UHGV virus genome: UHGV-0025826
Length of the DNA stretch: 41,937 nucleotides
Source of the DNA: a virus
Reading direction: 5' to 3' (one strand)
Numbering within the stretch: the stretch's first letter is position 1; each line of letters starts with the position of its first letter. Below, piece by piece: positions 1 through 41,877 of the stretch. The notes beneath the pieces are model-generated. The model was given only the letters and a program-made list of their open reading frames with translations, had not been told where the DNA came from and made no database searches. The translations under genes and the position numbers were made by a program.

Positions 1-79
1 CTGGGCCGATGCTGACCCGTACGTAGCGGCAGGAGTCTATGAACACGTTTCAGTGAAACCATTTAAGAAAGTGTTCTAA
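1..79 (+). CDS. 3' end of a host ORF (partial); prophage integration target
   Basis: Open frame from position 2 ending ...YEHVSVKPFKKVF with stop at 77-79; the last six codons lie inside the 17-bp repeat also present at 41861-41877, where the stop is TGA instead of TAA. Confidence 0.4.
   Translation, partial: WADADPYVAAGVYEHVSVKPFKKVF
61..77. repeat. attL core: 17-bp direct repeat atttaagaaagtgttct
   Basis: Exact 17-bp match with 41861-41877; flanking bases differ on both sides. Confidence 0.6.
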
Positions 80-144
80 CTTATTAGAAATTTGCACTTA
101 AATCAAAAAGTTACGGACAATTCAACCACCAATCAATAAATTAA

Positions 145-192
145 AGGGCACATTAAAGTACACAATATTTGTGCCCTTCTCTGTTTCTTTCC
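145..192. terminator. Stem-loop (agggcaca...tgtgccct) with T-rich tract; likely terminator for the host ORF and/or the invertase gene
   Basis: 8-bp inverted repeat at 145-152 and 170-177 followed by tctctgtttcttt; A-rich on the other side. Confidence 0.4.
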
Positions 193-197
193 CGTTA

Positions 198-746
198 TCA
201 GCTAGCTGGAAACTTTTTATACAGAGTTGAGAGCCCTACTCCATACGTTTTTGATACGCTTTGTCGTGATTCACCGGTTGCCATCCGCTCCCCCATTTCC
301 CGCCATTGCTCATCCGTGAACTTAGGCCTGCGACCACCAACTCGCCCTTTTGCCCTGGCTACGGCCAGCCCTGCTAAGGTACGTTCGCTATTAAGATCAG
401 ATTCATATTGTGCTGCGGAAAGGATGTTACGAAAGTTATAGCGGCCGCTGGCTGTTTTGAGATCCACGCCATCGGTAATACTGCGGAAGTTGATACCCTT
501 TTCCTGTAACTGCTGGAACATCAACAGCGCATGCAGAACGTTGCGGCCTATCCTGTCCAGCTTCCAGACCACCAGTTCATCCCCCGGCTGCATAGTGGCG
601 ATCAGCCGTTTTAGAACCGGCCGATTCGATTTCCTCCCGCTGGCATGCTCTTCAAAAATTTTCTCACAACCCGCTGACTTGAGCGCCGTTAGTTGCAATT
701 CAGTGTCCTGGTGGTTTGTTGATACTCGGGCATAACCGTAAATCAT
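198..746 (-). CDS. Serine recombinase, DNA invertase (Hin/Gin/Cin/Pin family)
   Basis: 182 aa; MIYGYARVSTNHQD...GDELVVWKLDRIGR...GRRPK...LSTLYKK matches the invertase catalytic domain and C-terminal HTH; lies next to the invertible fibre segment. Confidence 0.9.
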   Translation of the reverse strand: MIYGYARVSTNHQDTELQLTALKSAGCEKIFEEHASGRKSNRPVLKRLIATMQPGDELVVWKLDRIGRNVLHALLMFQQLQEKGINFRSITDGVDLKTASGRYNFRNILSAAQYESDLNSERTLAGLAVARAKGRVGGRRPKFTDEQWREMGERMATGESRQSVSKTYGVGLSTLYKKFPAS

Positions 747-751
747 GAGTG

Positions 752-778
752 CTTCTCCTGTTGTAAAAACAGGAGAAG
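752..778 (-). promoter_or_regulatory. Perfect 9-bp inverted repeat covering the invertase Shine-Dalgarno
   Basis: cttctcctg (752-760) and caggagaag (770-778) with a 9-nt loop; on the minus strand AGGAG lies 8 nt upstream of the ATG at 746. Confidence 0.35.
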
Positions 779-805
779 AGGCGAAATATCACCTGATTCA
801 GAAAA

Positions 806-831
806 ATATTTGAAAGGTTGGTTTGGGAGAA
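806..831. other. hix/gix-like 26-bp crossover site, left boundary of invertible segment
   Basis: Reverse complement TTCTCCCAAACC-AA-CCTTTCAAATAT; shares a 21-bp identical arm plus the AA core with the site at 2261-2286; resembles remembered hixL TTCTTGAAAACC-AA-GGTTTTTGATAA. Confidence 0.6.
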
Positions 832-1512
832 GCCAGATTCTCTGGTCGTTTGTTAAACACGAATATTTTTAAAAGCTCTGGAAAATATATCCCAACACCA
901 GGGACAAAAAAGATAAGGGTCATTGCCTCTGGTGGCGGTGGCGGCGGCGGTGGGGTTCCTGAAACAACAGAAAATCAGCAGGCAACAGCCGGAGCTGGAT
1001 TGAGCGGCGCATTTATTGAAGCATTTTTCGAGGTTGATAATGATTTCGAAGTCAACGTTATTATCGGTGCTGCAGGTAAAGGTGGGGGAGCCGGAAGAAA
1101 TTCAGGTAGTGAAGGTGGCACAACTTATTTCGGTTCCATGATAACTGCACCTGGTGGTACAGGCGGTGGCGCGGGGGGAGCATCTGCAAACACATCATAT
1201 ATTCAGGGTATTTCATGGGGTGCCAGTCCGACATCGTCCGGTACTGTACTAAGAGCATTTCGCTGTAGTGCAAAAACACCAGGAGCAATGGTTATCTCTG
1301 TTAAAGCTGTAGCAGGTGGTACCGGGGGGGATACACCATTAGGTTCAGGCGGTATAGGTGGTGCAAGTTCTTCATCATTCAGCGGACGTGGTGGTGGTAA
1401 AGCTGAGGGCTTTGGTGCTGGCGGAGGCGGAGCCTGCGCACCTGCTGGAAGTGAGGCTCAATCGGGAGGTGACGGTGCCCCGGGAATAGTTATTGTTGAG
1501 GAGTATGCCTGA
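814..1512 (+). CDS. Alternative tail fibre C-terminal domain (Gly-rich), silent in this orientation
   Basis: Frame is open from a stop at 811-813 with no ATG or RBS; begins GLGEAR directly after the crossover core, the same six residues that follow the core in the minus-strand fibre gene. Confidence 0.55.
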   Translation, partial: KVGLGEARFSGRLLNTNIFKSSGKYIPTPGTKKIRVIASGGGGGGGGVPETTENQQATAGAGLSGAFIEAFFEVDNDFEVNVIIGAAGKGGGAGRNSGSEGGTTYFGSMITAPGGTGGGAGGASANTSYIQGISWGASPTSSGTVLRAFRCSAKTPGAMVISVKAVAGGTGGDTPLGSGGIGGASSSSFSGRGGGKAEGFGAGGGGACAPAGSEAQSGGDGAPGIVIVEEYA

Positions 1513-1778
1513 TGAGTAATTTTGCTCTGATTGAACATGGCGTGGTGAAAAATATTATTATCTGGGATGGAGAGGGTGATTTATTCTCTAATTGCGAAAT
1601 TATAAATATTGATCATATAGATGCAGGCGTCGGTTGGTTCTATTCTGACGGAGAGTTTATAGCACCACCGGAACCGGAAATGACTGAATATGATGTTGGT
1701 AATATCGACGCGGTGATGGAAGCAGATACCAGCACCGCGCCGGGGGTTATCTGGCCAGTTCCACCTGAGATGGTTTAA
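1512..1778 (+). CDS. Putative tail fibre assembly/chaperone protein of the silent orientation
   Basis: 88 aa; start overlaps the upstream stop (TGATG); 3' end overlaps the minus-strand partner convergently; call is by position. Confidence 0.35.
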   Translation: MSNFALIEHGVVKNIIIWDGEGDLFSNCEIINIDHIDAGVGWFYSDGEFIAPPEPEMTEYDVGNIDAVMEADTSTAPGVIWPVPPEMV

Positions 1779-1944
1779 TCTCAATCAGAATGGGTTCGCC
1801 CTTCTTGTTAACAGATATTTCCATTCCTTCAGGGATTTCAGATGCAGTAAAAAACCAGTTATCTTCTGGTAATTCCACAGCCCCGGTCACGTCATGAAGA
1901 CCGGGGATTACTTCAGTCAAAGTAACAGGATTAAACAGGCGCAC
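1747..1944 (-). CDS. Putative tail fibre assembly/chaperone protein of the expressed orientation
   Basis: Frame open to 2034; GTG at 1944-1942 with GGAGAG 6 nt upstream lies just after the fibre stop; an alternative ATG is at 2007. Confidence 0.3.
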   Translation of the reverse strand: MRLFNPVTLTEVIPGLHDVTGAVELPEDNWFFTASEIPEGMEISVNKKGEPILIEIKPSQVELAR

Positions 1945-2668
1945 AATAAACTCTCCAGGAAAAAGCACTTGTTGATGGTCTTCCGTCGTACATCTGGCAG
2001 CGGACATAAAAACCTGTATTACTGACCTGGTCATCCACGATCATTGAAACGTGAACGTTATTAGGTGTGGCTTCGTAATCTGTTCTTATTCTTTCCGCTA
2101 TGCTGATAAAACGTGAAAGTTTAGGTAGTGCAATTGGATAAACGACTTTAGCCAGCCCATTATCATTGGAACCACCAGTTCCAAATACTTCTATTGCACC
2201 ATCTGACCAGCGTATCCATGCACCATTGACATTAGCTCCTCGCTGAATGACATATCTGGCTTCTCCCAAACCAAGGTTTGCGAGACCGTTTTTTGACGTT
2301 AATACAGGAGTCCATTTTGCTGATGGCGGCTGGCTACCAATATTTGCATTTTGTAAGGACTGATAAGATTCACCGTTATGTGTGCAGATCGAACCGATAT
2401 GATATTCCTGTTCTGCATGCCACTCTGGAACCCCCATTTGGTGCTGATACGCAATGAACTGACTCATTGCATACATTGCCGCATTGAAGTCCTCAAGCGA
2501 GGGGTGTTCGGAAGCGCCAACAATGCCCCATCCGCGAAGGAAAGATGCCGTAATTTGCGAGGTCAGGTCATCCGCCTGATTTGTTCCACCAAACACGGTT
2601 CTTTCCATTCCCTGTGCATCAGAGGCAAAAGCCCGAACATCTCCCTGATATCGTACAATCTTAGACAT
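1931..2668 (-). CDS. Tail fibre protein (constant N-terminal part plus currently expressed variable C-terminus)
   Basis: 245 aa; the crossover site lies in-frame inside the gene (..KNGLANL|GLGEARYVIQRG..); follows the baseplate genes. Confidence 0.6.
   Translation of the reverse strand: MSKIVRYQGDVRAFASDAQGMERTVFGGTNQADDLTSQITASFLRGWGIVGASEHPSLEDFNAAMYAMSQFIAYQHQMGVPEWHAEQEYHIGSICTHNGESYQSLQNANIGSQPPSAKWTPVLTSKNGLANLGLGEARYVIQRGANVNGAWIRWSDGAIEVFGTGGSNDNGLAKVVYPIALPKLSRFISIAERIRTDYEATPNNVHVSMIVDDQVSNTGFYVRCQMYDGRPSTSAFSWRVYCAPV
2261..2286. other. hix/gix-like 26-bp crossover site, right boundary, inside the tail fibre gene
   Basis: ttctcccaaacc-aa-ggtttgcgagac; inverted copy of the site at 806-831. 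Confidence 0.6.
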
Positions 2669-3383
2669 GGATTTTCCTCGAAAAAAAACCGCCCTGGTAG
2701 GCGGTATTAAACTTGCTGGCGAATCCTCTGGCCGAAGGGTTTCGCGAGAAACCGAATGTCAGACCAGGAGTCACCTGATAAAAATAATCGTATCGAACGC
2801 CCGCAGGTTTCGGCAGCAGGCCAAGCTTCACAATCAGGCGTAACTCTTCAACTGATACCCGCGGCGAAACGTTCAAAGCAAGCGTCATGTCTTTTCTGTC
2901 GGTCACGTAAGCTTCGCCGTTGAAAGCCGTCTGTATAACATCCTGCAGGCTGACCCGATCGTCTGACGCTATCGTTGCACCTGCGGCGTTTCGCGCAATT
3001 TTGACCCGAAGGAACCTGCGATACTCATTGTCAGCCAGTTGATAGTCACCATATGCCGGCGAAAACTTGCTGTAGAAAGGTGCGCCGACATACGCCGCAT
3101 TAGATTTACTGTCGAAGCCTGCGGTATTCAGATGTCCGTCAAACCCGAAAAATACACGGGCAATAACAGCAGGCACACTACGGTGAAGGCCGACTATCCG
3201 GCCAATGACATCAAGCCGGTATCCGGTAACCCGGTCGAGATCAAAGTTATCTGGGTTACGAATAAAATCGGCGATGATTTGCCAGTGCCTGAGCATGGCT
3301 TGTATCTCTGATCTTGCTTTTTTCTTTTCCCAATATTGTTTGATGAGCATTAGCGTGTAGCGGTTAATGATGTCGTCATTCAC
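2661..3383 (-). CDS. Baseplate protein (P2 gpI / Mu gp48-like)
   Basis: 240 aa; sits between the baseplate J-like gene and the tail fibre; overlapping stop/start with neighbours. Confidence 0.5.
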   Translation of the reverse strand: MNDDIINRYTLMLIKQYWEKKKARSEIQAMLRHWQIIADFIRNPDNFDLDRVTGYRLDVIGRIVGLHRSVPAVIARVFFGFDGHLNTAGFDSKSNAAYVGAPFYSKFSPAYGDYQLADNEYRRFLRVKIARNAAGATIASDDRVSLQDVIQTAFNGEAYVTDRKDMTLALNVSPRVSVEELRLIVKLGLLPKPAGVRYDYFYQVTPGLTFGFSRNPSARGFASKFNTAYQGGFFSRKIHV

Positions 3384-4561
3384 TGGACCACCTCGTTAAC
3401 GTCTATATTTTCCACACTCAACGTGAACTTTCCCTGAAAGCCTGGCGATAACTCAGCATCGGTGTAATCTGCCCCATTACTGCTAATTTGCAGATTGGTC
3501 AGCACAAAATTTACCCGTCCTACCCCATACCCATTCTCATAAAATTCATTGGCATCCACAGACTCACCAATATGCATGGTGCGTGATGCAAGAGATTTTT
3601 TGAGAGTATCGATATCTATCGGTTCGCTTTGAATCTTCCGGCGGGCATTAAGCCTGATATGAAGCGGCTTATAGATGGGCCGATCAAACTGAAGTTCATG
3701 GGCTATCAGAAATGAAGTGCCGTCAGGCCGAATCAGGGTCTCGGTAAAACGTCCGGTTATGCTGCCTTTCGTTCCCGTTCCACCGCCTTTCTGTTTAACC
3801 ATCACCTCCACAATTTCTGAAATCGCTCCCCCCTCAACGACCAGCCATATTGAATTGGCCGGGATACCCGTCGTCGGATTATCAATTTTTGTGTCGTTCT
3901 CTCCGATATTCAGATCAATTACACCTGTCAGTTGAGCAACTTTAGCGAAAACCGCCCCAGTGCTACCTGTTGCCGGGTTCTCAAGCGACCGGTTCCGGCG
4001 TTGCCTGAATTCTTCAGGCGTTTCCTCATCCCGACCGACCACAACCGCGGAATCAGAGATAATGCTCACAATCCCTGGTTCTGGTGTGAGTTGAGTGAAG
4101 GTGTCGTTCACAAGCCCAGTAACTTTCCCAAAGTTTTGAGCAAAAAAGGTGGCTGTTGTGACGCCCGCCGGAACGGTCACGTCCTGTCGGATAGCCCAGA
4201 CCTGATTTGCCTGGTCCCGTATCTTATACCCGCTATAGAGAAGCACCGGCCTGTCTGTTGTGACTTTAAGGTCACGCTGAGACCGGGAGCCGGGGCGAAG
4301 GAAAAGCCCGTGAAGTTTGGCGATAATCTGCTGCATATCACCTGTATTAAAATCGGGGTCCATTTGGGAATAAAGCCATTGCAGCGCGGCTTCAATATCT
4401 GCCCGAGCCTGAGCTTCGATTGCCACGCGTTGACCGTCGGGAGATTCCTGGTCTAAATCGATATCCTGACCATAAATTCCCTTATATCCGTCGCTCAGTT
4501 CCTGAAATAACTCCCGGAGAGTGCTTGTCTCAAGGCCGTTGTCGCTAAACTGTAGTGCCAT
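3380..4561 (-). CDS. Baseplate J-like protein (P2 gpJ / Mu gp47-like)
   Basis: 393 aa; size and position typical of baseplate J in Mu/P2-type tail modules. Confidence 0.7.
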   Translation of the reverse strand: MALQFSDNGLETSTLRELFQELSDGYKGIYGQDIDLDQESPDGQRVAIEAQARADIEAALQWLYSQMDPDFNTGDMQQIIAKLHGLFLRPGSRSQRDLKVTTDRPVLLYSGYKIRDQANQVWAIRQDVTVPAGVTTATFFAQNFGKVTGLVNDTFTQLTPEPGIVSIISDSAVVVGRDEETPEEFRQRRNRSLENPATGSTGAVFAKVAQLTGVIDLNIGENDTKIDNPTTGIPANSIWLVVEGGAISEIVEVMVKQKGGGTGTKGSITGRFTETLIRPDGTSFLIAHELQFDRPIYKPLHIRLNARRKIQSEPIDIDTLKKSLASRTMHIGESVDANEFYENGYGVGRVNFVLTNLQISSNGADYTDAELSPGFQGKFTLSVENIDVNEVVQ

Positions 4562-4925
4562 TCTTCAACGCTCCGTTGACCGGGAAGGTGATCGTCTGCT
4601 GGTCATAGACGGTCTCAATGCTGAGTTCGATTTTTTGTGACCGGGTGGCCTTATTGACCTCCATCGCCAGAGCGGTAATGCGCATAACCCCATCCGTCGC
4701 CAGCGTCACGCGCTCTATCTCCCGCAGAATCTCCTGCTCGGTGTTTTTCTCTGATAACAGGTAAAGCCAGTCGATGTTGTCATCCATGTTGAGAGGATTA
4801 TCGTTTTTGAACGAGCGGATCCGGCATTTGGCTTTCTGCGCGATAGCAGCACCGCCAGTTATATAGTTTGCCTTCCCGCGCCCAAATCCCCAGTCGTCAT
4901 TTTTATCAAGTGCTGAAACAATCAT
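4545..4925 (-). CDS. Baseplate wedge protein (GPW/gp25-like)
   Basis: 126 aa; upstream of and overlapping the J-like gene. Confidence 0.5.
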   Translation of the reverse strand: MIVSALDKNDDWGFGRGKANYITGGAAIAQKAKCRIRSFKNDNPLNMDDNIDWLYLLSEKNTEQEILREIERVTLATDGVMRITALAMEVNKATRSQKIELSIETVYDQQTITFPVNGALKNGTTV

Positions 4926-5539
4926 GAGATCTCCGTGACAATACCGTTGGTAACTGTGATTGTTTTCCCGTCATCGCTTCGAAATGAACCAGACACCCCA
5001 GACTTACCGCCTGTCTTTACCTGGGAATATTGAAGTACATTCAGAACATCGCATTCTTCCAGAGTCGTCTTACCATCTTTCTGGGTAATATTTCCTGTGA
5101 GGTTTAAATCACCCTCGTGGTCAGAATCCCCCTTCATCATCCTGTTCTTCTTAGGGATATTGATCGCGGTAGCCTGTGGGTTAACCCCACACAGAGCGAA
5201 GCCATCTGAATAATCGTGCATACGCATTTCAAGTGGTGAAACAAAGTCGCTACCCGCATACCAAGCGTCATAACAACGCTCAGAGATAAGGACGAGGCAA
5301 TAGTCACCAGCCGCAATTGGTTCGGCGATATAACTATCACCGCCTTGCAAAATTACCGGGGGGACTTCAATGAACTCTGGGAGTTGCTTGCTGCTCCCTT
5401 TCACAACCCGATTGATAACGGGGACGCAACTGATTGTTTTGTCATTTACAGACGTTATTTTTGCGACAACAATGGTGTGAACATCGGCCAGAGCAAATTC
5501 AACACCCAGGCCGATAGTGTCGTGAAGTTCTTCGATCAT
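4922..5539 (-). CDS. Baseplate assembly/spike protein (P2 gpV / Mu gp45-like)
   Basis: 205 aa; position upstream of the gp25-like gene. Confidence 0.5.
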   Translation of the reverse strand: MIEELHDTIGLGVEFALADVHTIVVAKITSVNDKTISCVPVINRVVKGSSKQLPEFIEVPPVILQGGDSYIAEPIAAGDYCLVLISERCYDAWYAGSDFVSPLEMRMHDYSDGFALCGVNPQATAINIPKKNRMMKGDSDHEGDLNLTGNITQKDGKTTLEECDVLNVLQYSQVKTGGKSGVSGSFRSDDGKTITVTNGIVTEIS

Positions 5540-5654
5540 AAATTAAGCCCATAAAAAACCGCCAGAGTGGGTTCAATGGATGGCTAGATAAATACTCATA
5601 CTAATCGCCGTAGAGCGAACCTGCGCCAGCGTTTAATACTAAGGAGAGTCACTC

Positions 5655-6188
5655 ATGGGATTCAAATTCAGACAGCGCATCAAAATTGCACCAGGCATTC
5701 ATATAAACATAGGTAAAACAGGCATTACTAGCGCATCAATTGGTAAGGCTGGTGCTACCCTGAACGTTGGTAAAAAAGGGGTAAAGGCAACCGCAGGCAT
5801 TCCCGGTACCGGTTTGTCTTACACGAGTGGAAACTTGCTCGCGGGTCAAAAGAACTCCACCGGTAAACACGCTGAGAACGTAGAGGAACAAGCACCTGAG
5901 CGGCTTGGTTTCTTTTCGGACTCAACGTTGTTAGAGGATGGTCAGGAAGATATTCAACCACCTCGCCCATTGGTCATGGTATTAACCCATAAGCAATTTA
6001 GAAAACTATCAACCGAGGAGAAAACGGCATTTAAAAATGCAGGTGGTAAGGTGAAGTTTTCAATAGGCGAGAAAATTTTTATTCTCACAGTCATTATTTT
6101 TGCTCTTGGCTGGCTTTCAGATCGTCACCCACCAGAAAAAACCAATTCCAGCGTAACGCAAGAAGTAAAATCTTCAGTTAACAACTGA
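5655..6188 (+). CDS. DUF4236-like protein with a C-terminal transmembrane segment; opposite-strand moron in the baseplate operon
   Basis: 177 aa; N-terminus MGFKFRQRIKIAPGIHINIGKTGITSASIGKAGATLNVGKKGVKATAGIPGTGLSYT matches the remembered DUF4236 signature; hydrophobic IFILTVIIFALGWL near the C-terminus; AAGGAGAG RBS; looks AT-richer than its neighbours by eye. Confidence 0.6.
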   Translation: MGFKFRQRIKIAPGIHINIGKTGITSASIGKAGATLNVGKKGVKATAGIPGTGLSYTSGNLLAGQKNSTGKHAENVEEQAPERLGFFSDSTLLEDGQEDIQPPRPLVMVLTHKQFRKLSTEEKTAFKNAGGKVKFSIGEKIFILTVIIFALGWLSDRHPPEKTNSSVTQEVKSSVNN

Positions 6189-7121
6189 GTAATTTCCGGC
6201 AGGCTGGCATACCACCTTCTGATACCAGGCTGCCCCGTTGTTCTGCCCGCTGGTTTCAATCTGGTATATCTTATAAACCCCGTTTAACGCGGGGTTCGTC
6301 ACGCTTTCAACAGCGCAAAGCCCACCGATCACCAGCATAGGATTCAGTTTCGTATCGAATACGATCTGCCCTTTCGAGGATTTGGCTAAGGTACTCGAGT
6401 CAGTATCTTTTTTGCCTGCCGGATCCGTATCAGGCTCATTGGTTGGCATCTTGGCTTTCTTCCCCCCGTCATCCTGTGCGCTAATCTTCGTTGCCTGAGG
6501 CGTATTTAGCAGACCGCTACGCGCATTCACGACTGGAATGTTACCCGATGTAACCTCATTAGCCTTGAGGATGTGGACGCGCTCATCTTTGATGAAAAAT
6601 GACTCGTCGGACGCAAGGGTATCGGTAAGAATTTTACTGGAGCTACCTACCAGAACCTTCGGCCTGATGAGTGCTTGTTGCTTCGTCACAGAGCCTTTTT
6701 TCGTGTTTGGCATATCCTGCAAGACAGAATCGACGACCTGATCTTTCCCGCGTACCGTGCGCGATGTGAAAGCGTTGATATAGTCGTGGCCACCGTCTTC
6801 ACATTCCAGGCTGACGATGTGGATCGCCCCCTCACGCTTTACTGCTCCGCTTTTAACCGAACCCTGAAATACCTGGCGCAGCTTGCCGTCGTAACCAACC
6901 TCGAGTCGAACGGGGATATACTTCTCTTCATCTTCGGACTTGAGCAATTGCAGACGCGTGGAAGGCTTTAGCCCGTTGATGGACACACTCAGCTTGCCGA
7001 GTGACTTCTTGTCCACAGTTTCCAGCGCCTTGAATGACACGGTGATCGGTGGCTCGATAATCACTGCTTGATTGCCGATCCCCACCGTCAGCCGATAATC
7101 ACGGTAAAAAGTATCCATCAC
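6174..7121 (-). CDS. Baseplate hub protein (Mu P / P2 gpD-like)
   Basis: 315 aa; position between TMP-proximal tail genes and the spike gene. Confidence 0.45.
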   Translation of the reverse strand: MMDTFYRDYRLTVGIGNQAVIIEPPITVSFKALETVDKKSLGKLSVSINGLKPSTRLQLLKSEDEEKYIPVRLEVGYDGKLRQVFQGSVKSGAVKREGAIHIVSLECEDGGHDYINAFTSRTVRGKDQVVDSVLQDMPNTKKGSVTKQQALIRPKVLVGSSSKILTDTLASDESFFIKDERVHILKANEVTSGNIPVVNARSGLLNTPQATKISAQDDGGKKAKMPTNEPDTDPAGKKDTDSSTLAKSSKGQIVFDTKLNPMLVIGGLCAVESVTNPALNGVYKIYQIETSGQNNGAAWYQKVVCQPAGNYSVVN

Positions 7122-7453
7122 GGCACGTCTCCCCCGCGAATATCAATCATCTCTTCCGGCGTGACCAGATACATTTCGATGCGACCACTGGCGAAGTCGT
7201 CAGCCCGATATGGGTCAATGCCGGAATTGTCAGCGCAAAGTAACACAACGTCGAAAGGCCAGTTCTTGTGCCGAAAATGTAGCGTCCCGAGGGACAGCTT
7301 CACGCCGTCGATGTAATCACCGTTGTACTCCACGCGCATTTTCCACATTTCAACCGTAGGCAGATAACGAATAGTGACCACAGCCTCACCACGGTCAAAA
7401 ATCAGAACATGCCGCTGGATAGGTTCGTCAGTGATGTTGGTTATCGGATCCAT
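7118..7453 (-). CDS. Phage tail protein, unknown function
   Basis: 111 aa; translationally coupled inside the tail operon. Confidence 0.4.
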   Translation of the reverse strand: MDPITNITDEPIQRHVLIFDRGEAVVTIRYLPTVEMWKMRVEYNGDYIDGVKLSLGTLHFRHKNWPFDVVLLCADNSGIDPYRADDFASGRIEMYLVTPEEMIDIRGGDVP

Positions 7454-7465
7454 ACGTTGCTCTCA

Positions 7466-8272
7466 TTAGAATAAAGATTTCGCCGCCCCTTTTAACGAGG
7501 TCATGACTGATTTTGACTGGCTGGTCCCGTTACTTTTTTTAGAATTATCAGCGGGCGTCTGCGCCCCCTTATTAGCAACGCCCGCCGTTTTTGATTTAGC
7601 AGCTGCCGAGGGGGATTTGAAGTGCTGCTCAATCGGTGCGGTAGTCAGTTGCGTGAAGGTGATTTTTGTAAAACTGGCTTCAAACTTAGTTTCCATCGTT
7701 TGATTGTCGGTACTGATGGTCAGGCCGCTTAACGCCATATTTTCATGGGTGCGATAATCCACCTCCACGGAAATAAGCTGCTTGCCGTAGTACACCCCCT
7801 CAATGAAGTCGAGAAATTGCTCGCGTATACCTTTAGCGCCACCAGTAGACGGGTTGCCCACCAGCCCAAACAGGTCGGCTCCTTTATCAGCCAGGCGTTT
7901 TGCCTTTAAGATGGCCTGCTCTGCGCGGTCGGCAATCTCATTCATTTTTTGCAACTGCTGCTGCGTCTTTGCGGGGATGTACTCCAGCACCTCACCATAC
8001 TTCGAATAATCTGGCATCAGGCTAAAAGAAGAGTTTGGTTTCGCATCGACAAAAATATCGGCAACAACACCGCTGATTTTTATCGTCAGCGGGCCATTGA
8101 TAATGTCGTCTGACGCGTTACTGCCATCCTCCAGCACGTCTACAGGAACCTGAGACGGGTATTCAGTAGCATCGCTCACTCGGGCAAACATTGAGAACCC
8201 GCCGATCCCTACCTTTTTAACAGTATCTTTGCCAGAAGATTGCGCCTGCATGAGGCCGTCTAGAATCCCCAT
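7466..8272 (-). CDS. Phage tail protein (possibly DNA-circulation N-like)
   Basis: 268 aa; immediately downstream of the tape measure gene, the position Mu gpN occupies. Confidence 0.4.
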   Translation of the reverse strand: MGILDGLMQAQSSGKDTVKKVGIGGFSMFARVSDATEYPSQVPVDVLEDGSNASDDIINGPLTIKISGVVADIFVDAKPNSSFSLMPDYSKYGEVLEYIPAKTQQQLQKMNEIADRAEQAILKAKRLADKGADLFGLVGNPSTGGAKGIREQFLDFIEGVYYGKQLISVEVDYRTHENMALSGLTISTDNQTMETKFEASFTKITFTQLTTAPIEQHFKSPSAAAKSKTAGVANKGAQTPADNSKKSNGTSQSKSVMTSLKGAAKSLF

Positions 8273-10134: not shown

Positions 10135-10221
10135 ACAGCTCTGGTGTGTCTAATTTAACAAGTTCGTGATAGGGGCCGTATCCGGCCTTTGATAGCGCCA
10201 GATACATGCTCATGTCGTCGC

Positions 10222-10635: not shown

Positions 10636-10643
10636 ATCTGACC

Positions 10644-11075: not shown

Positions 11076-11085
11076 TTACCGCTCC

Positions 11086-30368: not shown

Positions 30369-30467
30369 TTTAGGCTCCTCGTGTTGTGAAGAGCCTAATT
30401 ATATCAGGTTTGAATCTACGTCATTGAAGTAGCAGGATTTGTTACACCATGTTCTGAAACTCGGACA

Positions 30468-32946: not shown

Positions 32947-32957
32947 TGTCAGTGCTC

Positions 32958-33176: not shown

Positions 33177-33278
33177 GTGCTTCTCCTGCTTATTGATAGC
33201 AGAAGTAAACCACAGATTTATACTTCATGCAAACTTTGGATTTATTGCGTGCATAAACCAAATATTTACAATGACCAT
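33177..33278. promoter_or_regulatory. Divergent immunity promoter/operator region
   Basis: Inverted repeat CTGCT-N7-AGCAG at 33186-33202; recurring gcaWaaac-like half-sites; plus-strand -35 TTGCGT (33245-33250) and -10 TACAAT (33267-33272) ending 6 nt before the repressor ATG. Confidence 0.45.
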
Positions 33279-34542: not shown

Positions 34543-34616
34543 TCAGATTTGGTCAATACGCCTGAGTTATAAGGCTCTCAGCTACTAACTCTGTCGCCTT
34601 CCCCGAACCTTCTCAT

Positions 34617-34642
34617 CCCGACCACGCGTCGGGATTTTTTTT
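34617..34642 (+). terminator. Rho-independent terminator closing the repressor/cassette B transcript
   Basis: cccgac-cacgc-gtcggg stem-loop followed by T8. Confidence 0.65.
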
Positions 34643-34716
34643 GCCTGCGATTCTGCAGACGTGTCACAAAACCCAGCCACATAAACCTCAGATTTACAAT
34701 TAATACCAACCCTAAG

Positions 34717-34745
34717 TTGACATATATATAAACCAGTGATTTAAT
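34717..34745 (+). promoter_or_regulatory. Candidate early-left (PL-like) promoter
   Basis: TTGACA (34717-34722), 17-nt spacer, TTTAAT (34740-34745), just downstream of the terminator. Confidence 0.4.
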
Positions 34746-34997
34746 CTAACTCACCAAGACGCACCACGAACCACCCAAGCATGGAGCCCACGAAGTAGCC
34801 GTCCGGGGCATACGAAAACCGGAATGAGGTGGTGATATTAACGCGCAGTAGGTTTGAAACGTTCCGCCAGCCTGGCGACAAGGGCAAACACAGAAGTGAG
34901 CTTCGCGGTGGTGAATTGCAGAGTTAAAACGCTCAACTGTGAAGATCAGCGTCACGGCACCACCAGCGAAGTTCACTCAGCAATAGTGGAGAACATC

Positions 34998-35204
34998 ATG
35001 GTTCATCAGCACTACGGTACACAGACAGTAAACCGCGGCGCAGTTCAGCCGGGGATGCTTGTAAAACACAAAGACTCAACCTGGACGGCATCAGCTAACG
35101 CTCGCGGACGTTTGTATCTGCATCGCGGCGTAGAAATGACTTACACCAAGGATTTGCTGGTTGAAGTTTATCTGAACGGTCTGGGGCATGGACTCAGCCA
35201 CTAG
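34998..35204 (+). CDS. Hypothetical early protein (68 aa)
   Basis: ATG at 34998 with GGAGAA upstream; the longer frame from 34854 begins with TTG and has no RBS. Confidence 0.3.
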   Translation: MVHQHYGTQTVNRGAVQPGMLVKHKDSTWTASANARGRLYLHRGVEMTYTKDLLVEVYLNGLGHGLSH

Positions 35205-35215
35205 CGGAGGATGTC

Positions 35216-35377
35216 ATGTTAGACAAGAAATGCGGATATTGCGGCAAGCCGGTTAAAACGGAGGAAGTAATCAAGAGCACCCTTCTCTATCGCAACGGCT
35301 CACAGCTGGCGCGCAAAGAAAAAGAGTATTGCTCCAAACGTTGCGCTTCGCACGACCAGATGGCTCACGAAGGCTAA
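35216..35377 (+). CDS. Small Cys4 zinc-ribbon-like protein (53 aa)
   Basis: MLDKKCGYCGK...EYCSKRCASHDQ; GGAGGA 7 nt upstream of ATG; below the ORF-track size cut-off. Confidence 0.35.
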   Translation: MLDKKCGYCGKPVKTEEVIKSTLLYRNGSQLARKEKEYCSKRCASHDQMAHEG

Positions 35378-35516
35378 CGTAAAACCCGCGCAAGGCGGGA
35401 TCTACGTCCGGTGGTACCGACCAAAGTTACACCGGAAACAACATTAAAACCAAAGTTAACCCAATGGGCGCTATCAATGGTCCGGGGATTCTAACACCCA
35501 AAAATGAGGATCTCAC

Positions 35517-38500
35517 ATGGAATTCTTTAATGTGGTTAAAGCCACTCAGAAATCCGGAAAGCAAGATGCAGTGGTCTGGTTCACTGCTAAAACCGAGGCT
35601 CGCGCCAATCTGATGCTGGATGTTGCGCTGGAAGATGCAGGTATCGAAACAGGTCGGGGTAAGGACTACGCCAAACCGATTCGCACTGATTTCCCAGTTG
35701 TCGACGGTCTGCCGAAAGAAGGTGAAGTTGATTTTACCTGGTGTGATCGCTACGAGCTTCAGGACGATGGGCGCACCTGGCTGCCAAAAGCCGCTGGTGT
35801 GTCTACTGGTTCCGTTGACGCCCCCTACACACCTACTCCGACCGTAATCGTTGAAGATGCGACTGCGTCCGAAATTGTCCCGGTTGAAAACCGTACTCCA
35901 GCGGTCCGCTTTGCCGTCCATCTGATGAACGATAAATACCAAACCCACGTCACTAAAGAGCAGCAGTTGGCTGCCAGCGAAATGTCACTGGATGAAGGCA
36001 ATACATATCTCCATAGCCTGCTTGTGGCAAGGAACGATGTGCCCGCGACCGCCAAACTCAGCCTGAATGCTGAGTGGAAAATGATTCGGGCGGTTAAGGA
36101 CATTTTCACACCAGACGAAGAGCACGAACCAAGATTGATCGCTGCATTCATGTCTGACTGGGTGAACACCGATGCCGGTGACCGCAATCAACTGGTAGAA
36201 GACTGGCGCAGTGGTAAGTTGCAGTTGCTCAAAACTGAAACCAGCAACGCTGCTGACGTTACAACTGGTCAAGATCTCACTGTTGAGGACGGTATCCAGA
36301 CCGACGAGAACGGCCGGGCAGAAGGTGGCGTCGTTGATGGTGAAGTCGATACCGAAGAGCAATCCCAGCAGACACAGCAACCGAACCTGATCGTTGTTGC
36401 CACCCTGCCATTCCGCCAGCGCGTACTGGCTCAGTTCATCGGTGATGGTGAATATCTCTATCACATCGACGCAGGGCAGAAAAATGAGATTGTCCGCCTT
36501 GAGATGGACACCGATGACGCGTACGTCCAGAACCTGCTGCTGGCAGCTGAGAATGTGGAAGCATTCAAAAAAGCCATTGAGCACGATATTCATAAAGTCG
36601 TGAATGCCGTTAAGAAAGTCTTCCCTGTCGATGGTAAAAAACCGGAGCTGGCAACAGTTATCCAGTTCCTGACTGTGTGGTTCAACACTGATTACATCGA
36701 CCGTGGCCTGCTGGTCAAGGAATGGCAGAAAGGTAACCGCGTTGCGCAGATTCAACGTACTGACGTCAAAACCAATGCTGGCGGTGGAAATAAGACCGAT
36801 CGTAATACCGACTATGTCCACACACTGGACACTTTGGATGTTGAAATTGCGCTGGCCACCTTGCCAATGGATTTCAATATCTACGACATACCTGGTGGGG
36901 TCTACCGTCGCGCTAAAGAGATTGTCAGCAAGAAAGAAAGTCCGTTCAGCGAATGGTCTGAGGCGCTGCGCAAAACCGCTGGCATCCTGGACTATTCACG
37001 CGCCGCCATCTTTGCACTCATCCGCGGCACATCATCAGAATTGGTTAACTTTCCTGGGCGGTTGCGGGCATATATCAATGCCAATCTAACCGAAAATGAC
37101 CACTCAAACCTCTCAGAAGAAACGCTGGCTGATGCTGGTCATGCGCCGGACGTCAGCTGGGAAAATGAGGTTAATGAGCAGGTCGCTGCAGAGCAGAAAA
37201 CAGCTGCTAAACAGCCACAAATCGCCAACATGGGCAACGGCGTATTCTCCATTGATGGCCTGATGGGCGATCAACAAACACAAACAGATAACCGTTCACC
37301 ACTTAATGAGGAAACCACCAGCAATGTGCAGATGGAAGAAACTGTCAGTGATGAAGAACAGGCTGGTGATGAAGTGCAGTCAGGCGAAAGCAGTCTGGAA
37401 ACTGGTGAAGAGTCACATACCGGCCAGCAAGCCGATGTGAGCCAGAATGCGGATTCTGTTAGCCAAAACAGCGATTCTGTAAACCAAACCGAACCGGTTG
37501 CGGCCCAAACCGAGCCAGAAGCTCAATCTGACGAACCGGGTGTTGTGTACCCTGCTTACTTCGAACCTGGCCGCTATGAAGGTCTGCCGAACGAGGTTTA
37601 CCACGCTGCCAACGGCATCAGTTCCACCCAGGTAAAAGATGCGCGCGTTTCGCTGATGTACTTCAATGCGCGCCACGTTGAGAAAACCATCGTCAAAGAG
37701 CGCTCCTCAGTGCTGGACATGGGAAACCTGGTACATGCGCTGGCGTTGCAGCCAGAACAGCTCGATGAAGAATTTAGCGTTGAACCCGTAATTCCGGAAG
37801 GTGCATTTACCACCACGGCAACGATCCGCGCGTTTATTGATGAGTACAACGCCAGCCTGCCAGCGCAACTGAGCGCAGACGATATCAAAGCTTTGCTGGA
37901 TGAATACAACGCCACCCTGCCAGCGCTGGTGCCGCTGGGCGCTAGCCTGGATGAAACGGCGCAGAACTATATGGCGCTGCCAGCTGAATTCCAACGTATC
38001 GATGCAGATCAGAAGAAGACAGCAACAGCAATGAAGGCGTGCATCAAAGAGTACAACGCCACCCTGCCAGCGCAGATTAAAACCAGCGGCAGCCGCGACG
38101 CACTACTCGAACAACTTGCGATTATCAATCCTGACCTGGTCGCGCAGGAAGCTCAGAAGCTGCAACCGCTGAAAGTCTCTGGCACGAAGGCCGATCTGAT
38201 TCAGGCCGTGAAGGCAGTCAAACCAGATGCAGTGTTCGCCGACGAGCTGCTCGATGCGTGGCGCAACAACCCGGAAGGGAAAGTGCTGGTTACCCACCAG
38301 CAACTTGCCACCGCGCAGGCAATTCAGTCAGCACTGCTCTCGCACCCGACCGCAGGCATGCTGCTAACCCACCCGAGCCGCGCCGTTGAGGTGAGCTACT
38401 TTGGCTTTGACGAGGAGACGGGACTGGAAGTTCGTGTGCGCCCTGACCTTGAGATCGACCTAGACGGCGTGCGTATCGGTGCTGACCTGAAAACCATCAG

Positions 38501-38840
38501 CATGTGGAATGTTAAGCAGGAAAGCCTGCGCGCCAGGCTACACCGGGAAATTATTGAACGTGATTATCACCTGAGCGCGGCTATGTACTGCGAAACCGCA
38601 GCGCTGGATCAGTTCTTCTGGATTTTCGTCAACAAAGACGAGAACTACCACTGGATCGCCATCATCGAGGCATCCGCTGAACTACTGGAGCTGGGTATGC
38701 TCGAGTACCGCAAAGCGATGCGCAATATCGCAACCGGATTCGACACAGGTGAATGGCCAGCGCCAATCACTGCTGACTACACCGACGAACTGAACGACTT
38801 CGACCTGCGCCGCCTTGAAGCGCTGCGTACTCAGGCATAA
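35517..38840 (+). CDS. RecE-like exonuclease (exonuclease VIII-type, long N-terminal extension)
   Basis: 1107 aa; acidic low-complexity middle; directly upstream of a RecT/Redbeta-like annealase; GAGGA RBS; nuclease-domain assignment is positional. Confidence 0.55.
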   Translation: MEFFNVVKATQKSGKQDAVVWFTAKTEARANLMLDVALEDAGIETGRGKDYAKPIRTDFPVVDGLPKEGEVDFTWCDRYELQDDGRTWLPKAAGVSTGSVDAPYTPTPTVIVEDATASEIVPVENRTPAVRFAVHLMNDKYQTHVTKEQQLAASEMSLDEGNTYLHSLLVARNDVPATAKLSLNAEWKMIRAVKDIFTPDEEHEPRLIAAFMSDWVNTDAGDRNQLVEDWRSGKLQLLKTETSNAADVTTGQDLTVEDGIQTDENGRAEGGVVDGEVDTEEQSQQTQQPNLIVVATLPFRQRVLAQFIGDGEYLYHIDAGQKNEIVRLEMDTDDAYVQNLLLAAENVEAFKKAIEHDIHKVVNAVKKVFPVDGKKPELATVIQFLTVWFNTDYIDRGLLVKEWQKGNRVAQIQRTDVKTNAGGGNKTDRNTDYVHTLDTLDVEIALATLPMDFNIYDIPGGVYRRAKEIVSKKESPFSEWSEALRKTAGILDYSRAAIFALIRGTSSELVNFPGRLRAYINANLTENDHSNLSEETLADAGHAPDVSWENEVNEQVAAEQKTAAKQPQIANMGNGVFSIDGLMGDQQTQTDNRSPLNEETTSNVQMEETVSDEEQAGDEVQSGESSLETGEESHTGQQADVSQNADSVSQNSDSVNQTEPVAAQTEPEAQSDEPGVVYPAYFEPGRYEGLPNEVYHAANGISSTQVKDARVSLMYFNARHVEKTIVKERSSVLDMGNLVHALALQPEQLDEEFSVEPVIPEGAFTTTATIRAFIDEYNASLPAQLSADDIKALLDEYNATLPALVPLGASLDETAQNYMALPAEFQRIDADQKKTATAMKACIKEYNATLPAQIKTSGSRDALLEQLAIINPDLVAQEAQKLQPLKVSGTKADLIQAVKAVKPDAVFADELLDAWRNNPEGKVLVTHQQLATAQAIQSALLSHPTAGMLLTHPSRAVEVSYFGFDEETGLEVRVRPDLEIDLDGVRIGADLKTISMWNVKQESLRARLHREIIERDYHLSAAMYCETAALDQFFWIFVNKDENYHWIAIIEASAELLELGMLEYRKAMRNIATGFDTGEWPAPITADYTDELNDFDLRRLEALRTQA

Positions 38841-38845
38841 GGGGA

Positions 38846-39964
38846 ATGATGATGGAAAACACGAATATCGTAACCGCTGAACAGCAGACTCCAAACACGA
38901 TCTCAGCCAGCAATGCCATTTTCAACGTGCAGGCTTTAACCCAGCTTCAGTCTGTCGCCGGGTTGATGGCACAGGCAGCCGTAACGGTGCCTGAGCACCT
39001 CCGCGGCAATCCGGCAGACTGCATGGCCATCATCATGCAGGCGATGCAGTGGGGTATGAACCCTTACGCCGTGGCGCAAAAGACGCACCTGGTTAATGGT
39101 GTCCTGGGATACGAAGCGCAACTGGTTAATGCGGTGATCTCCAGCTCAAACGCCATCGTTGGCCGCTTTCACTATGAGTACGAGGGCGACTGGTCGAAAT
39201 GTGCCAGCAGCCGCGAGATAACCGTTAAAAAGCCTGCGAAAGGTGGCGGGACGTACGACAAGAAAGAAATGGTACGCGGTTGGGAAAGTGCTGATGAACA
39301 AGGACTGTCGGTACGGGTAGGTGCCGTTATTCGCGGTGAAAGTGATATCACCTGGGGAGAGCCTGTTTTCCTCTCCAGCGTAATCACACGTAATTCTCCA
39401 CTTTGGGTATCAAACCCGAAACAGCAGATCGCTTATCTGGCACTCAAATACTGGGCGCGCCTGTATTGCCCTGCAGTTGTTCTTGGTGTGTACACCCCTG
39501 ATGAGATTGAACAGCGCACAGAAAAAGAGATCAACCCAACGCCGCAACGCGTTAGCCTGGCTGATATCTCAGGTGACACCGTCACAACCACGCAAAGCGC
39601 ACAGGAATCGTCGGTAAATGTCGACTCTCTTGCCGATGATTTCCGCGAACGCATCGAATCTGCTCAGAACGTGGATAGCGCCAAATCGCTGCGTGCCGAC
39701 ATTGAAACGGCGAAAGCTACGCTGGGATCCGCACTATTCACCGAGCTGAAAAACAAAGCCGTAAAGCGTTATTACCTAGTGGATGCACGCAACAAGGTTG
39801 AGGAGGCTATTAAATCCCTGCCCCAGCCCGACGAGCCGCATGCATCCGAACGGTTCGCTGAAGCCGAGCGCATGCTTGCATCTTCAAAGCGTCACTTAGG
39901 CGATGAACTGCACGATCAATTCAGCATCACCCTGGCGGATATGAAACCGGAATACGTGGCCTGA
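38846..39964 (+). CDS. Single-strand annealing protein (RecT/Redbeta family)
   Basis: 372 aa; AMQWGMNPYAV resembles lambda Bet ANQYGLNPWTK and RecT; immediately downstream of the exonuclease. Confidence 0.6.
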   Translation: MMMENTNIVTAEQQTPNTISASNAIFNVQALTQLQSVAGLMAQAAVTVPEHLRGNPADCMAIIMQAMQWGMNPYAVAQKTHLVNGVLGYEAQLVNAVISSSNAIVGRFHYEYEGDWSKCASSREITVKKPAKGGGTYDKKEMVRGWESADEQGLSVRVGAVIRGESDITWGEPVFLSSVITRNSPLWVSNPKQQIAYLALKYWARLYCPAVVLGVYTPDEIEQRTEKEINPTPQRVSLADISGDTVTTTQSAQESSVNVDSLADDFRERIESAQNVDSAKSLRADIETAKATLGSALFTELKNKAVKRYYLVDARNKVEEAIKSLPQPDEPHASERFAEAERMLASSKRHLGDELHDQFSITLADMKPEYVA

Positions 39965-39971
39965 CGAGACC

Positions 39972-39989
39972 GGGAGGGGTAACCCTCCC
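39972..39989 (+). other. GC-rich stem-loop after the annealase gene, no U-tract
   Basis: gggaggg-gtaa-ccctccc, followed directly by the AAGGAG RBS of the next ORF. Confidence 0.25.
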
Positions 39990-40002
39990 TCAAGGAGATT
40001 AT

Positions 40003-40245
40003 ATGCGACTGATCAATCGAGGAAGTAAGCAATCACCTTTAGCTCGCCAAGCATGCGACATCGCGCTGGCAGCTCACTTGCAAACATATGGCGACTATGG
40101 GCGAAGCAAGATGAAAGAGACTTATACGGTGAAGGTTGAAGGCGTGAAAGTCTGGGTGGAGGTGGTGAACCGAAAGGCGAGCTACGTGGCCACAGCGATG
40201 ACCGGCATGCGCCGTCTCCGCTCCCTGCCCGGGCAGGTTGGTTGA
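40003..40245 (+). CDS. Hypothetical protein (80 aa)
   Basis: ATG with AAGGAG RBS; between the annealase and excisionase genes. Confidence 0.3.
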   Translation: MRLINRGSKQSPLARQACDIALAAHLQTYGDYGRSKMKETYTVKVEGVKVWVEVVNRKASYVATAMTGMRRLRSLPGQVG

Positions 40246-40286
40246 AAAAGATTTTGAATGGCCCGAACGGGCAACTGGAGAGAGCT

Positions 40287-40484
40287 ATGGATGATATTTT
40301 GGTAACGTCAGACCTGACCAGTCGCTACAAAATTTCACGCAAAACCCTTTGGTCATGGCAAAGTGCAGACACAATGCCTCGGGGCTTCGTATGCCCGTTC
40401 CCACCCCCTGACTGGCCCGGCAACCCTAACCGCTGGCGCTCTGAGTCAATCAAAGAGTGGGAGGATAAAAAGAAGATAAATTAA
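40287..40484 (+). CDS. Excisionase / AlpA-family DNA-binding protein
   Basis: Start at ATG 40287 with GGAGAG upstream; SRKTLWSW...FP.P...G...W..SEIKEW pattern typical of AlpA/Xis; adjacent to and convergent with integrase. Confidence 0.55.
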
Positions 40485-41674
40485 CTGAAGGGCTCTCCGA
40501 TGATCTCTTCAAGATGGCTCTGCCAAACGCGGAGCCAGTGTTTCTGATCATCGATATAGTCATGAAGGTTGTAATGCGCCATAACCCCCACCATCTGATG
40601 CCCGAGCAGCTTTTCAATTACGTGCGGCGGGCAACCTAACTCAGAGAGATTTGTGGCTATCGTCCGCCTCATATCATGAAGCGACCACTCTGCCATACCT
40701 GTTCCATTCCAAATAGAACGGGCGTAATTGGATGCCACAGGTGAATGAACGGGCGAATCTTTGATCCCGCCATCAATTTTACGTTGTGAAGTCACCAGGT
40801 GATTGGTGTTTATTTTCTTGAGGTGATTTCTGACCAGGTTAACGGCGGCGTCTGAGAGTCCCCTTCTAATATGTACCCGAGTTTTATAACTGCCCGCAGG
40901 CACGACCCACTCATTATCATCCAATCGAAACCATGATCTCTCACTAAGTCGAATCTCAGCCGTACGGCATCCGGTAAGCATAATAAATTTCACCAGGAAA
41001 ACGGACTCTATCGACATATGGCTTTTCAACCACTGATAGATTTTGCGCAGATCGTCATCGTCCATCCTGCGAGTTCTCTTTTTAGGCTTTTGCCCGACAT
41101 CAGATGGCAGTAATCCCTCGAGTGGGTTTGAGGCGATCACACTTCTGTTAACGCAGAACCTAAACGCCCGTTTGCACAGCGAAAGCATGTAATGAGCCAT
41201 CACCCTGCTTTCTATAGAATCGAAGACGTTGATCCAGTGCATTTTCGCTGTGTTATCGACTTTGACATTCTTCATCGGTTCGGCGATATGTTTCTCAAAC
41301 ACCTGGCGATAGTAATCGACTTTAACTAGCCCGTTAGCGATACAGTGCCTTTCAATCCAGTAATTGAACGCTTCGGCAACGGACATCGCTTCCTGTCGGG
41401 TCTGCTTATCCAGCTTCACCTGCTCTCGCGGATCCAGTCCCTCAGTTAACCAGTTTCTGAATTGTTGGCGACGCTCTCTTGCCTGGGTGATACTCATTGC
41501 AGGATAATCACCAACATTGAGTTTTACCGCTTTACCGGCCCAGCGATACCGATAGAAAAATGATATTTTTCCGGCCTGGCTGATTCTGGCGTTGAGCCCG
41601 TGCGAATCAGAAATAATCTCGATATCATCTCTTTTCTTGCCGAGCGCCTTCCTGAGCTTTGTGTCGGTGATCAT
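40481..41674 (-). CDS. int: Tyrosine integrase (P4-like)
   Basis: Start set to ATG at 41674 ([10 protein letters not shown]...); N-terminal FFYRYRW arm-binding-like domain; catalytic HDMRRT and LLGH...HY motifs; adjacent to attR. Confidence 0.9.
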
Positions 41675-41860
41675 TGAATGGGTACACATTTTTGTTTTTG
41701 GGTACACAAAAGTGTACACAAAGTTGCCCACTCAAAGCTACACGCAATGTAACACTAGTTCGCAGAGTGTTATGGTTTACATCCTTGAAAGCCTGCTGGA
41801 TAAGGGTTTAGCGTAACAGAACGTTTTTACGCGGAATTGTTCGTAATATGCCAAATGACA

Positions 41861-41877
41861 ATTTAAGAAAGTGTTCT
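41861..41877. repeat. attR core: 17-bp direct repeat
   Basis: Exact match to 61-77. Confidence 0.6.

Follow-up and report, generated by a model that had tools for sequence, protein, structure and literature searches.

Phage phi80 integrates into the chromosome of Escherichia coli (E. coli) at att80, a site at the gene yciI (PMC5727415, PMC11148124). Insertion at a gene's 3' end, which is thereby reconstituted, the att80 site itself, the phi80 integrase (Int) and excisionase (Xis), the mosaicism of lambdoid genomes and invertible tail-fibre cassettes are all already well described. The combination of lambdoid regulation with contractile-tail virions is known in phages such as SfV. In the Gifsy phages, short repressors are induced via LexA-controlled antirepressors, and the gene order of the antirepressor operon has been reported (Lemire et al. 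2011, PMC3121763). Here, we analysed a stretch of 41,937 nucleotides (nt) of viral DNA, UHGV virus genome UHGV-0025826 (hereafter the window, to which all coordinates refer). The element that fills it is identified as a 41,800-base pair (bp) prophage whose insertion site, at the 3' end of yciI, is the classical att80 of phi80. An earlier note on the same DNA had described the insertion, which is of an ordinary and well-understood kind; its description is otherwise correct, but the identity of the site with att80 and of the system with that of phi80 was not recognised in it.

The best explanation of the window, to which we give a probability of about 0.85, is one temperate phage with a mosaic genome and phi80-type integration at att80. 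This reading is carried by the att sites, the empty site, the identity of Int, Xis and attP with those of phi80, and a set of intact genes under selection. A single 41,800-bp temperate phage genome would have been integrated by phi80-type, Int-mediated site-specific recombination between attP and att80. The 17-bp core of att80 overlaps the last codons and the stop of yciI, and the native TGA and terminator have been shifted by 41.8 kb to attR. Excision would use Int, Xis and integration host factor (IHF) on attL and attR.

The core is the 17-mer ATTTAAGAAAGTGTTCT, which has two exact copies in the window, at 61-77 (attL) and at 41861-41877 (attR), neither assigned to a strand; the unit from one copy to the other measures 41,800 bp. 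There is no third copy in the window, even with two mismatches allowed. By chance 0.01 matches would be expected, and none of 100 shuffles yielded two. Upstream of the core, the bases AC at 58-59 and 41858-41859 also match, past one mismatch at 60/41860. When the two junctions were searched separately, non-lysogens matched the left one only up to base 77 and the right one only from 41858/41861. The empty site was rebuilt by joining 1-77 to 41878-41937, which gives 137 nt. This rebuilt site is 100% identical to thousands of E. coli genomes, where it is annotated as the end of yciI, and 5272 of 5426 complete E. coli genomes have at least 80% of it in one contiguous stretch, at a median of one place per genome. 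In one such empty-site genome, kch comes directly after yciI, while the gene order in the lysogen E. coli VE-F5 is tonB, yciI, prophage, kch. The earlier note had pointed to the same 17-mer at these two positions and had proposed a search for an uninterrupted allele with one copy of it; the repeat proves to be exact and unique in the window, and the allele is the yciI-kch site of the 5272 genomes. The possibility that the 17-mer is a common repeated motif, which that note had named as a refutation, was examined by the window scan and by the number of places per genome, and it is not so.

The host gene is preserved at the protein level. The 3' end of yciI occupies 1-79 on the plus strand, where the frame that enters at position 2 ends in ...VSVKPFKKVF*, with a TAA stop at 77-79. 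The core provides five full sense codons and parts of the two flanking codons; the left copy does form the end of a host open reading frame (ORF), as had been noted, but the count of six codons given for it was not right. At attL, the stop is composed of a T from the core and AA from phage DNA, so that the phage supplies a new stop, TAA in place of TGA. At attR, the T of the core is followed by GA and forms the native TGA (41877-41879). With the core duplicated and AA at the start of the phage P' arm, the YciI sequence is unchanged and ends at a TAA stop, and the same RefSeq protein accession, WP_000967595.1, is found in the near-identical lysogen VE-F5 and in an empty-site strain. The segment 41877-41937 (plus strand), which comprises the displaced native stop and the native intrinsic terminator (41896-41926), is 100% identical to empty-site genomes, with kch further downstream.

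Hairpins are found at both ends; a consensus terminator scan called neither of them, and folding was used for both. The right hairpin, at 41896-41926, has the core CACGGTT/AACCGTG followed by TTCTTGTTT and a folding energy of -17.1 kcal/mol. It is host sequence, a conventional terminator that the insertion has displaced from yciI. It had been placed at 41902-41929 and taken as the displaced native end together with the TGA, which agrees with the presence of both in empty-site genomes. The left hairpin has a 9-bp stem (144-152/170-178), an unusually large loop of 17 nt and a folding energy of -13.7 kcal/mol (z = -3.7). On the minus strand, it reads as a 10-bp stem followed by UUUAAUUUAUU, right past the end of the pin gene. 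Its stability and the U-rich run that follows it on the minus strand, beyond the pin gene, would allow it to terminate yciI as well as pin. It is also located within the conserved P' arm, and its loop holds one copy of the motif GTACACA, which occurs three times in the P arm; it may therefore serve the architecture of the attP arm no less than termination. Of the terminator-like hairpin that had been proposed at 145-192, the stable fold stands (at 144-178), and the terminator role stands only in part, given the atypical loop and the motif in it.

The integration module is that of phi80. The tyrosine integrase gene (40481-41689, minus strand) encodes a protein identical to phi80 Int at 402 of 402 amino acids (aa), with the Pfam domains Arm-DNA-bind_3 and Phage_integrase. 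It lies 171 nt from the attR core, beside attR as previously described. The excisionase gene (40287-40484, plus strand) encodes a protein identical to phi80 Xis at 65 of 65 aa; in the RefSeq (PGAP) record of VE-F5, the xis gene, at about 43112-43309 of L001, is without annotation. The rebuilt attP (41677-41877 joined to 78-260) differs from phi80 attP at 2 of 384 positions. Its P arm (41690-41860, no strand) is identical to the phi80 P arm, and its P' arm (78-197, no strand) contains the hairpin at 144-178 and, at about 101-113, the position to which the IHF site annotated in phi80 maps. The phi80 record annotates a 17-bp attP core and an IHF site in the matching region. The core given there (ACAATTTAAGAAAGTGT; L002 2498-2514, equal to JX871397 24623-24639) is offset 3 nt to the left of the identity with ATTTAAGAAAGTGTTCT, a minor annotation discrepancy. 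A motif search placed the three P-arm GTACACA repeats at 41682-41720, the first starting within the int start codons; they are candidate arm-type Int sites. The attP arms appear to carry IHF and arm-type sites as in phi80. Furthermore, the left junction region 58-833 matches phi80, mEp237, HK225 and mEpX1 at 97-99.7%, over phage features annotated as 'attP core', 'IHF' and 'DNA invertase'.

The prophage and phi80 (Lula) share Int, Xis, the attP arms, the 17-bp core, the site between yciI and kch, the orientation of int, the convergence of xis on int and the pin gene beside attP. However, phi80 is a siphovirus with another virion module and another immunity region, and its repressor is, as we assume, of the cleavable CI type, unlike that of this prophage. 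Among the 5426 complete genomes, 205 have an attR-type junction, in which a phi80-type int arm meets host DNA, and 118 have an attL-type junction with pin. The exact window is absent from this set, in which the closest strain is VE-F5.

Five parts can be told apart in the mosaic genome: the Int/Xis/attP/pin module of phi80; an early region of lambdoid type, like those of mEp237, HK225 and Gifsy, which comprises RecET, a short repressor with cro and cII, O and P, the nin genes and Q; the lysis cassette; the virion module with a contractile tail; and a fibre segment under the control of Pin. Likeness to known phages at the nucleotide level is confined to the att-int-pin ends and the early region, and the right half is covered to 47% by mEp237 (at 95% identity) and to 36% by HK225 (at 98%). 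The order of the genes is like that of the lambda map, with int-xis first, then the recombination genes, the repressor, cro, cII, O, P, the nin genes and Q, and finally the genes for lysis, head and tail up to att. Lambdoid phages are defined genetically, by recombination with lambda into viable hybrids, and the extensive segments shared with mEp237, HK225 and phi80 at 95-99% are consistent with such an ability. None of the 58 translated gene models has an internal stop, and in comparison with cultured phages every gene for head, tail, lysis, replication and regulation is open and has its full length. Since there are two core copies only and a single set of each module, the element is one prophage and not a tandem.

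The virion module occupies the left 21.5 kb. The contractile-tail, baseplate and neck genes (2661-13999, minus strand; RefSeq names and Pfam) comprise those for a DUF2612 protein, baseplate J, spike, hub, tape measure, chaperone, tube, a DUF3383 sheath (11086-12588) and neck proteins. The head and packaging genes (14015-21520, minus strand; PHROGs) comprise those for a DUF4054 protein, the major capsid protein, a cement protein, a protease/scaffold, head morphogenesis, the portal, TerL and TerS. The tail genes are collinear, gene by gene and at full length, with those of the cultured Vibrio phage 1.052.A, at 36-59% aa identity, and for head and tail alike, collinearity extends to the cultured Proteus myovirus vB_PmiM_ZX7, whose capsid protein shares 71% identity with that of the prophage. 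Sheath identity is 58-59% with Vibrio phage 1.052.A and Yersinia phage fEV-1 (58% with fEV-1). While the virion genes of these three phages are collinear with those of the prophage, their replication and regulatory genes are unrelated; fEV-1 and ZX7 have their own polymerase, primase and helicases, and in the parts of 1.052.A, fEV-1 and ZX7 that were examined, neither annotation nor matches pointed to an integrase of the phi80 type or to an early region of the lambdoid type. At the nucleotide level, the virion module has no match among sequenced phages, which cover only 4% of the left 20 kb. In strain EcE.CRE.COL, the same site is occupied by a diverged relative whose head genes are 80-92% identical at the nucleotide level. 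Against this relative, the ratio of non-synonymous to synonymous substitution rates (dN/dS) is 0.077 for the pooled structural genes (819 synonymous and 240 non-synonymous differences) and 0.02-0.10 in the head and packaging module. This low ratio, with no notable changes in length, argues that the virion genes are maintained by selection. The earlier note's claim that all modules are intact is borne out by these values and by the open, full-length genes. A frameshift of the portal gene, suggested by its length of 429 aa against 447 aa in the relative, was rejected; the two proteins are 97% identical through residue 426, and only the extreme C-terminal tail differs. Two genes lie on the opposite strand: a DUF4236 gene (5655-6188, plus strand) within the baseplate genes, which is 100% identical in the relative prophage, and a YfbU-family gene (21608-22168, plus strand) between terS and the lysis genes.

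In the early region, the replication genes P and O (30710-32304, minus strand; RefSeq names) are 99% identical to those of mEp237 and HK225 at the nucleotide level. The immunity region (32389-33668, both strands; Pfam and PHROGs) consists of a cII-like gene of the YdaT family and a cro-like gene of the YdaS family, both on the minus strand, and a repressor gene (33249-33668, plus strand). The repressor has 139 aa and a helix-turn-helix (HTH) domain only; in Pfam, no S24 self-cleavage peptidase domain was found in it. Its identity is 26% to Gifsy-2 GtgR, a protein of equal length, and 67% to the mEp237 repressor, and it has a weak full-length match to DicA in NCBIfam. Between the prophage and mEp237 repressors, the C-terminal half is nearly invariant, while the HTH region differs. 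The early-left operon (34998-39964, plus strand; PHROGs and RefSeq names) consists of kil, ydaE, recE (1107 aa) and recT. A near-consensus promoter, with TTGACA at about 34718, is located in the interval 34543-34997 between the terminator of the repressor operon and kil. In the 280-nt leader from this putative pL to kil, a put-like antitermination RNA was considered and rejected, as the fold is no better than that of shuffles (z = +0.96).

Both mEp237 and HK225 share attP, int, xis and pin with the prophage, and their recE-recT and O/P genes are 92-99% identical to it at the nucleotide level. In addition, mEp237 shares the dinI-ORF82-ninB stretch (94.5%) and the 67%-identical short repressor. 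They differ in the specificity region of immunity, the HK225 repressor being longer, at 257 aa, and in their virion modules, which have no high-identity nucleotide match to that of the prophage; mEp237 has only a few stretches of tail genes at 65-75%.

Without an S24 domain, the lambda-type route of SOS induction is not available to this repressor. Repressors of this short family are not cleaved on induction, and SOS induction of the prophage would need an antirepressor, possibly from an operon at 29135-29772 (minus strand). This operon starts with a consensus LexA box, TACTGTATAAAAAAACAGTA (29753-29772), followed by dinI (29501-29734; NCBIfam DinI), an ORF of 82 aa (29135-29383) and a homologue of STM1020, which is the order of the Gifsy antirepressor operon; STM1020 is equated here with irsA by gene position, not by a stated accession. 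The 82-aa ORF belongs to phrog_340, to which a function is not assigned, and it is 97.6% identical in the cultured temperate phage mEp237. It occupies the position of the antirepressor gene, a position that would suggest an antirepressor role. Gifsy-1, -2 and -3 share with the prophage the family of short repressors of about 139 aa (26% to GtgR) and the order LexA box, dinI, small ORF, STM1020 homologue (84% aa identity), NinG, YlcG and Q; they differ in the integration site, the integrase and the virion genes, and the 82-aa ORF is not detectably similar to GftA of Gifsy-2. Induction would run via a LexA-controlled antirepressor of the Gifsy type and not via self-cleavage of the repressor. We give about even odds that the prophage is SOS-inducible through this LexA-dinI-ORF82 route. 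That the prophage is inducible by some route is plausible, if unproven; the earlier note had called it probably inducible, which the intact genes favour and which does not extend to a lambda-type SOS route.

The pin gene (198-746, minus strand) encodes a full-length serine DNA invertase of the Pin family, of 182 aa, with the Pfam domains Resolvase (PF00239, E = 3.6e-39) and HTH_7 (PF02796). It is identical to phi80 PinL at 172 of 172 aa. PinL ends 10 aa earlier, because phi80 has TAA where the prophage has TCA (codon 173, near 228-230; phi80 L002 2668-3186). Pin lies next to an invertible tail-fibre segment (806-2286, no strand), which is bounded by crossover sites at 806-831 and 2261-2286 with the inner half-site TTCTCCCAAACC followed by AA. 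A 26-nt inverted repeat (813-838/2254-2279, 92% complementary) marks the sites, which presumably resemble hix/gix sites (AAACC-NN-GGTTT). The segment contains two alternative fibre C-termini and two chaperone genes, with ORFs at 823-1512 (plus), 1512-1778 (plus) and 1747-2034 (minus) and the variable part of 1931-2668 (minus). In the current orientation, the tail-fibre gene (1931-2668, minus strand, 245 aa) crosses the right site, and its constant N-terminal part is outside the segment; in its first 122 aa, the protein shares 50% identity with the fibre of Vibrio phage 1.052.A. The alternative C-terminus (823-1512) has the opposite orientation, starts at the left site and has a Gly_rich_2 domain. 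Both fibre ORFs read ...LGEAR(Y/F)... in frame across the crossover site, and a small chaperone ORF comes after each of them. Pin-controlled inversion of this segment would switch host range.

Strain VE-F5 is 99.97% identical to the window except at 806-2286, where the same crossover sites enclose a cassette unrelated to that of the window. The window's own cassette occurs at 99.2-99.7% identity in 27 other genomes. In the two of these genomes that were examined, UC4224 and its laboratory derivative UC4315, it is inside a P2-like prophage and is inverted between them, so that both orientations are observed there; in the present prophage, one orientation is observed. The Gin, Cin, Pin and Hin systems (Mu G segment, P1 C segment, e14 P segment and P2-like prophages) likewise have a serine invertase by a segment bounded by inverted sites, with two alternative fibre C-termini and a chaperone with each. 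Here, unlike in those systems, the switch directly adjoins attL within an integration module of the phi80 type. Homology to phi80, mEp237 and HK225 stops at 829-833, within the left crossover site. Past this site, phi80 has just a pseudogene fragment of a fibre cassette. The phi80 pin region, in which PinL is cut short and the fibre fragment stands alone, gives the impression of being a vestige of the full switch present here, in which a full-length Pin heads a complete segment.

The remaining genes lie between the head genes and the replication genes. The lysis cassette (22194-23556, minus strand; PHROGs and ORF translation) encodes a holin, an endolysin and an Rz spanin; embedded in the Rz gene is an Rz1-like ORF for a lipoprotein with the lipobox LAVGC. 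It is followed by the gene of an orphan type II DNA methyltransferase (23625-24677, minus strand; PHROGs), which was the only system that PADLOC called on ten accessory proteins. A strong LexA-like box, ATACTGTAAATATAAACAGTG (24650-24669), lies in codons 3-9 of this gene, an odd position for an operator; it may be due to chance or reflect SOS control of the methylase. Two adjacent genes of 134 and 251 aa, with a GC content of 0.43 (24887-26046, minus strand), occupy a typical moron position between Q and the methyltransferase; they match only PHROGs of unknown function and have no match in Pfam, NCBIfam or PADLOC. The segment 26469-29100 (minus strand; RefSeq names and PHROGs) holds the late regulator Q (26469-27158), YlcG, NinG, genes of unknown function and the NinB/DUF1367 gene, which is the homologue of Gifsy-2 STM1020 (84% aa identity). 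The 3' end of a C5-cytosine methylase gene (...GNAVPPPFAEALVRANLPELCQQKEIAA*) occurs twice, at 29880-29945 and 30467-30600; these fragments are remnants of a deleted accessory gene between P and dinI. No tRNA or tmRNA gene and no Rfam family at gathering score was found in the window.

We consider it likely that the prophage is viable. Several points weigh against this and, with it, against the reading as one functional temperate phage. Excision, a circular attP and virions of this particular prophage are predictions from sequence. At the nucleotide level, no cultured phage covers more than 47% of either half, and most of the left 25 kb (virion, lysis, methyltransferase) is held by only 5 of the 5426 complete genomes. 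An N-like antiterminator gene is absent from 34543-34997, and the 280-nt leader in this interval has no suitably sized ORF for one. The 82-aa ORF has no detectable similarity to Gifsy-2 GftA, and no named function was found for it in PHROGs or NCBIfam, or by tblastn against phage records, which returned 'hypothetical protein' only. Moreover, the C5-methylase remnants show some decay in the accessory region, and in the EcE.CRE.COL prophage at yciI the Q antiterminator is annotated as a pseudogene with an internal stop (L008 26006-26815), so that some members of the group decay.

These points can be put together into an alternative in which the prophage is cryptic, that is, integrated as described but no longer able to excise or to form infectious particles, either through defects that do not appear as broken frames or through loss of the induction route. 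The repressor without an S24 cleavage domain, the lack of an N gene, the methylase remnant in the nin region, the relative with a Q pseudogene and the lack of a cultured counterpart speak for this alternative. However, every essential gene is open and full length, Q is intact in this prophage, and Int, Xis and attP are identical or nearly so to those of a phage of proven function. The dN/dS of 0.077 argues for recent selection as a virus, and short repressors of the same family are induced through antirepressors in the Gifsy phages. On balance, we regard a cryptic, non-inducible prophage as unlikely.

The sharp mosaic boundary, with a right half 95-99% identical to lambdoid siphoviruses and a virion half without a nucleotide match in the phage collection, could also reflect a composite of two adjacent elements, for example a phi80-like remnant (int and early genes) and an unrelated myovirus prophage. 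Such a composite is very improbable, as there is no internal hybrid att site even at two mismatches, each functional module is single, with no second integrase or repressor, and the gene order is the normal circular permutation of the lambdoid map. In addition, the same architecture is found in diverged relatives at the same site, and the size of 41.8 kb fits one capsid. Finally, a coincidental or common 17-mer without site-specific insertion, for which no support was found, is ruled out by the uniqueness of the repeat against a chance expectation of 0.01, by flanks that rejoin into a conserved single-copy host site, by the breaks of homology at the junctions and by the equality of the core with the phi80 attP core.

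With a single temperate phage of phi80-type integration as the preferred reading, only this combination of modules, without a cultured counterpart, is new here. A broader joint reading is possible, and we advance it tentatively, holding it to be somewhat doubtful as a whole. It would see in the window an uncultured, viable group of contractile-tail temperate phages with the complete ancestral form of the phi80 att-int-pin module, such that the truncated pinL and the orphan fibre fragment of phi80 would be relics of a myovirus-type host-range switch. Induction would then depend on a so far unrecognised antirepressor, the 82-aa ORF after dinI, aimed at the conserved C-terminal half of heteroimmune short repressors.

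The significance of the finding is small beyond the correct annotation of the element. It indicates that contractile-tail phages, too, make use of the phi80 Int/attP module, which about 2-4% of complete E. coli genomes carry at yciI, and it documents an intact Pin switch where phi80 holds a vestige only. It also offers a candidate new antirepressor/repressor pair, which may be of use for work on prophage repressors that are not cleavable.

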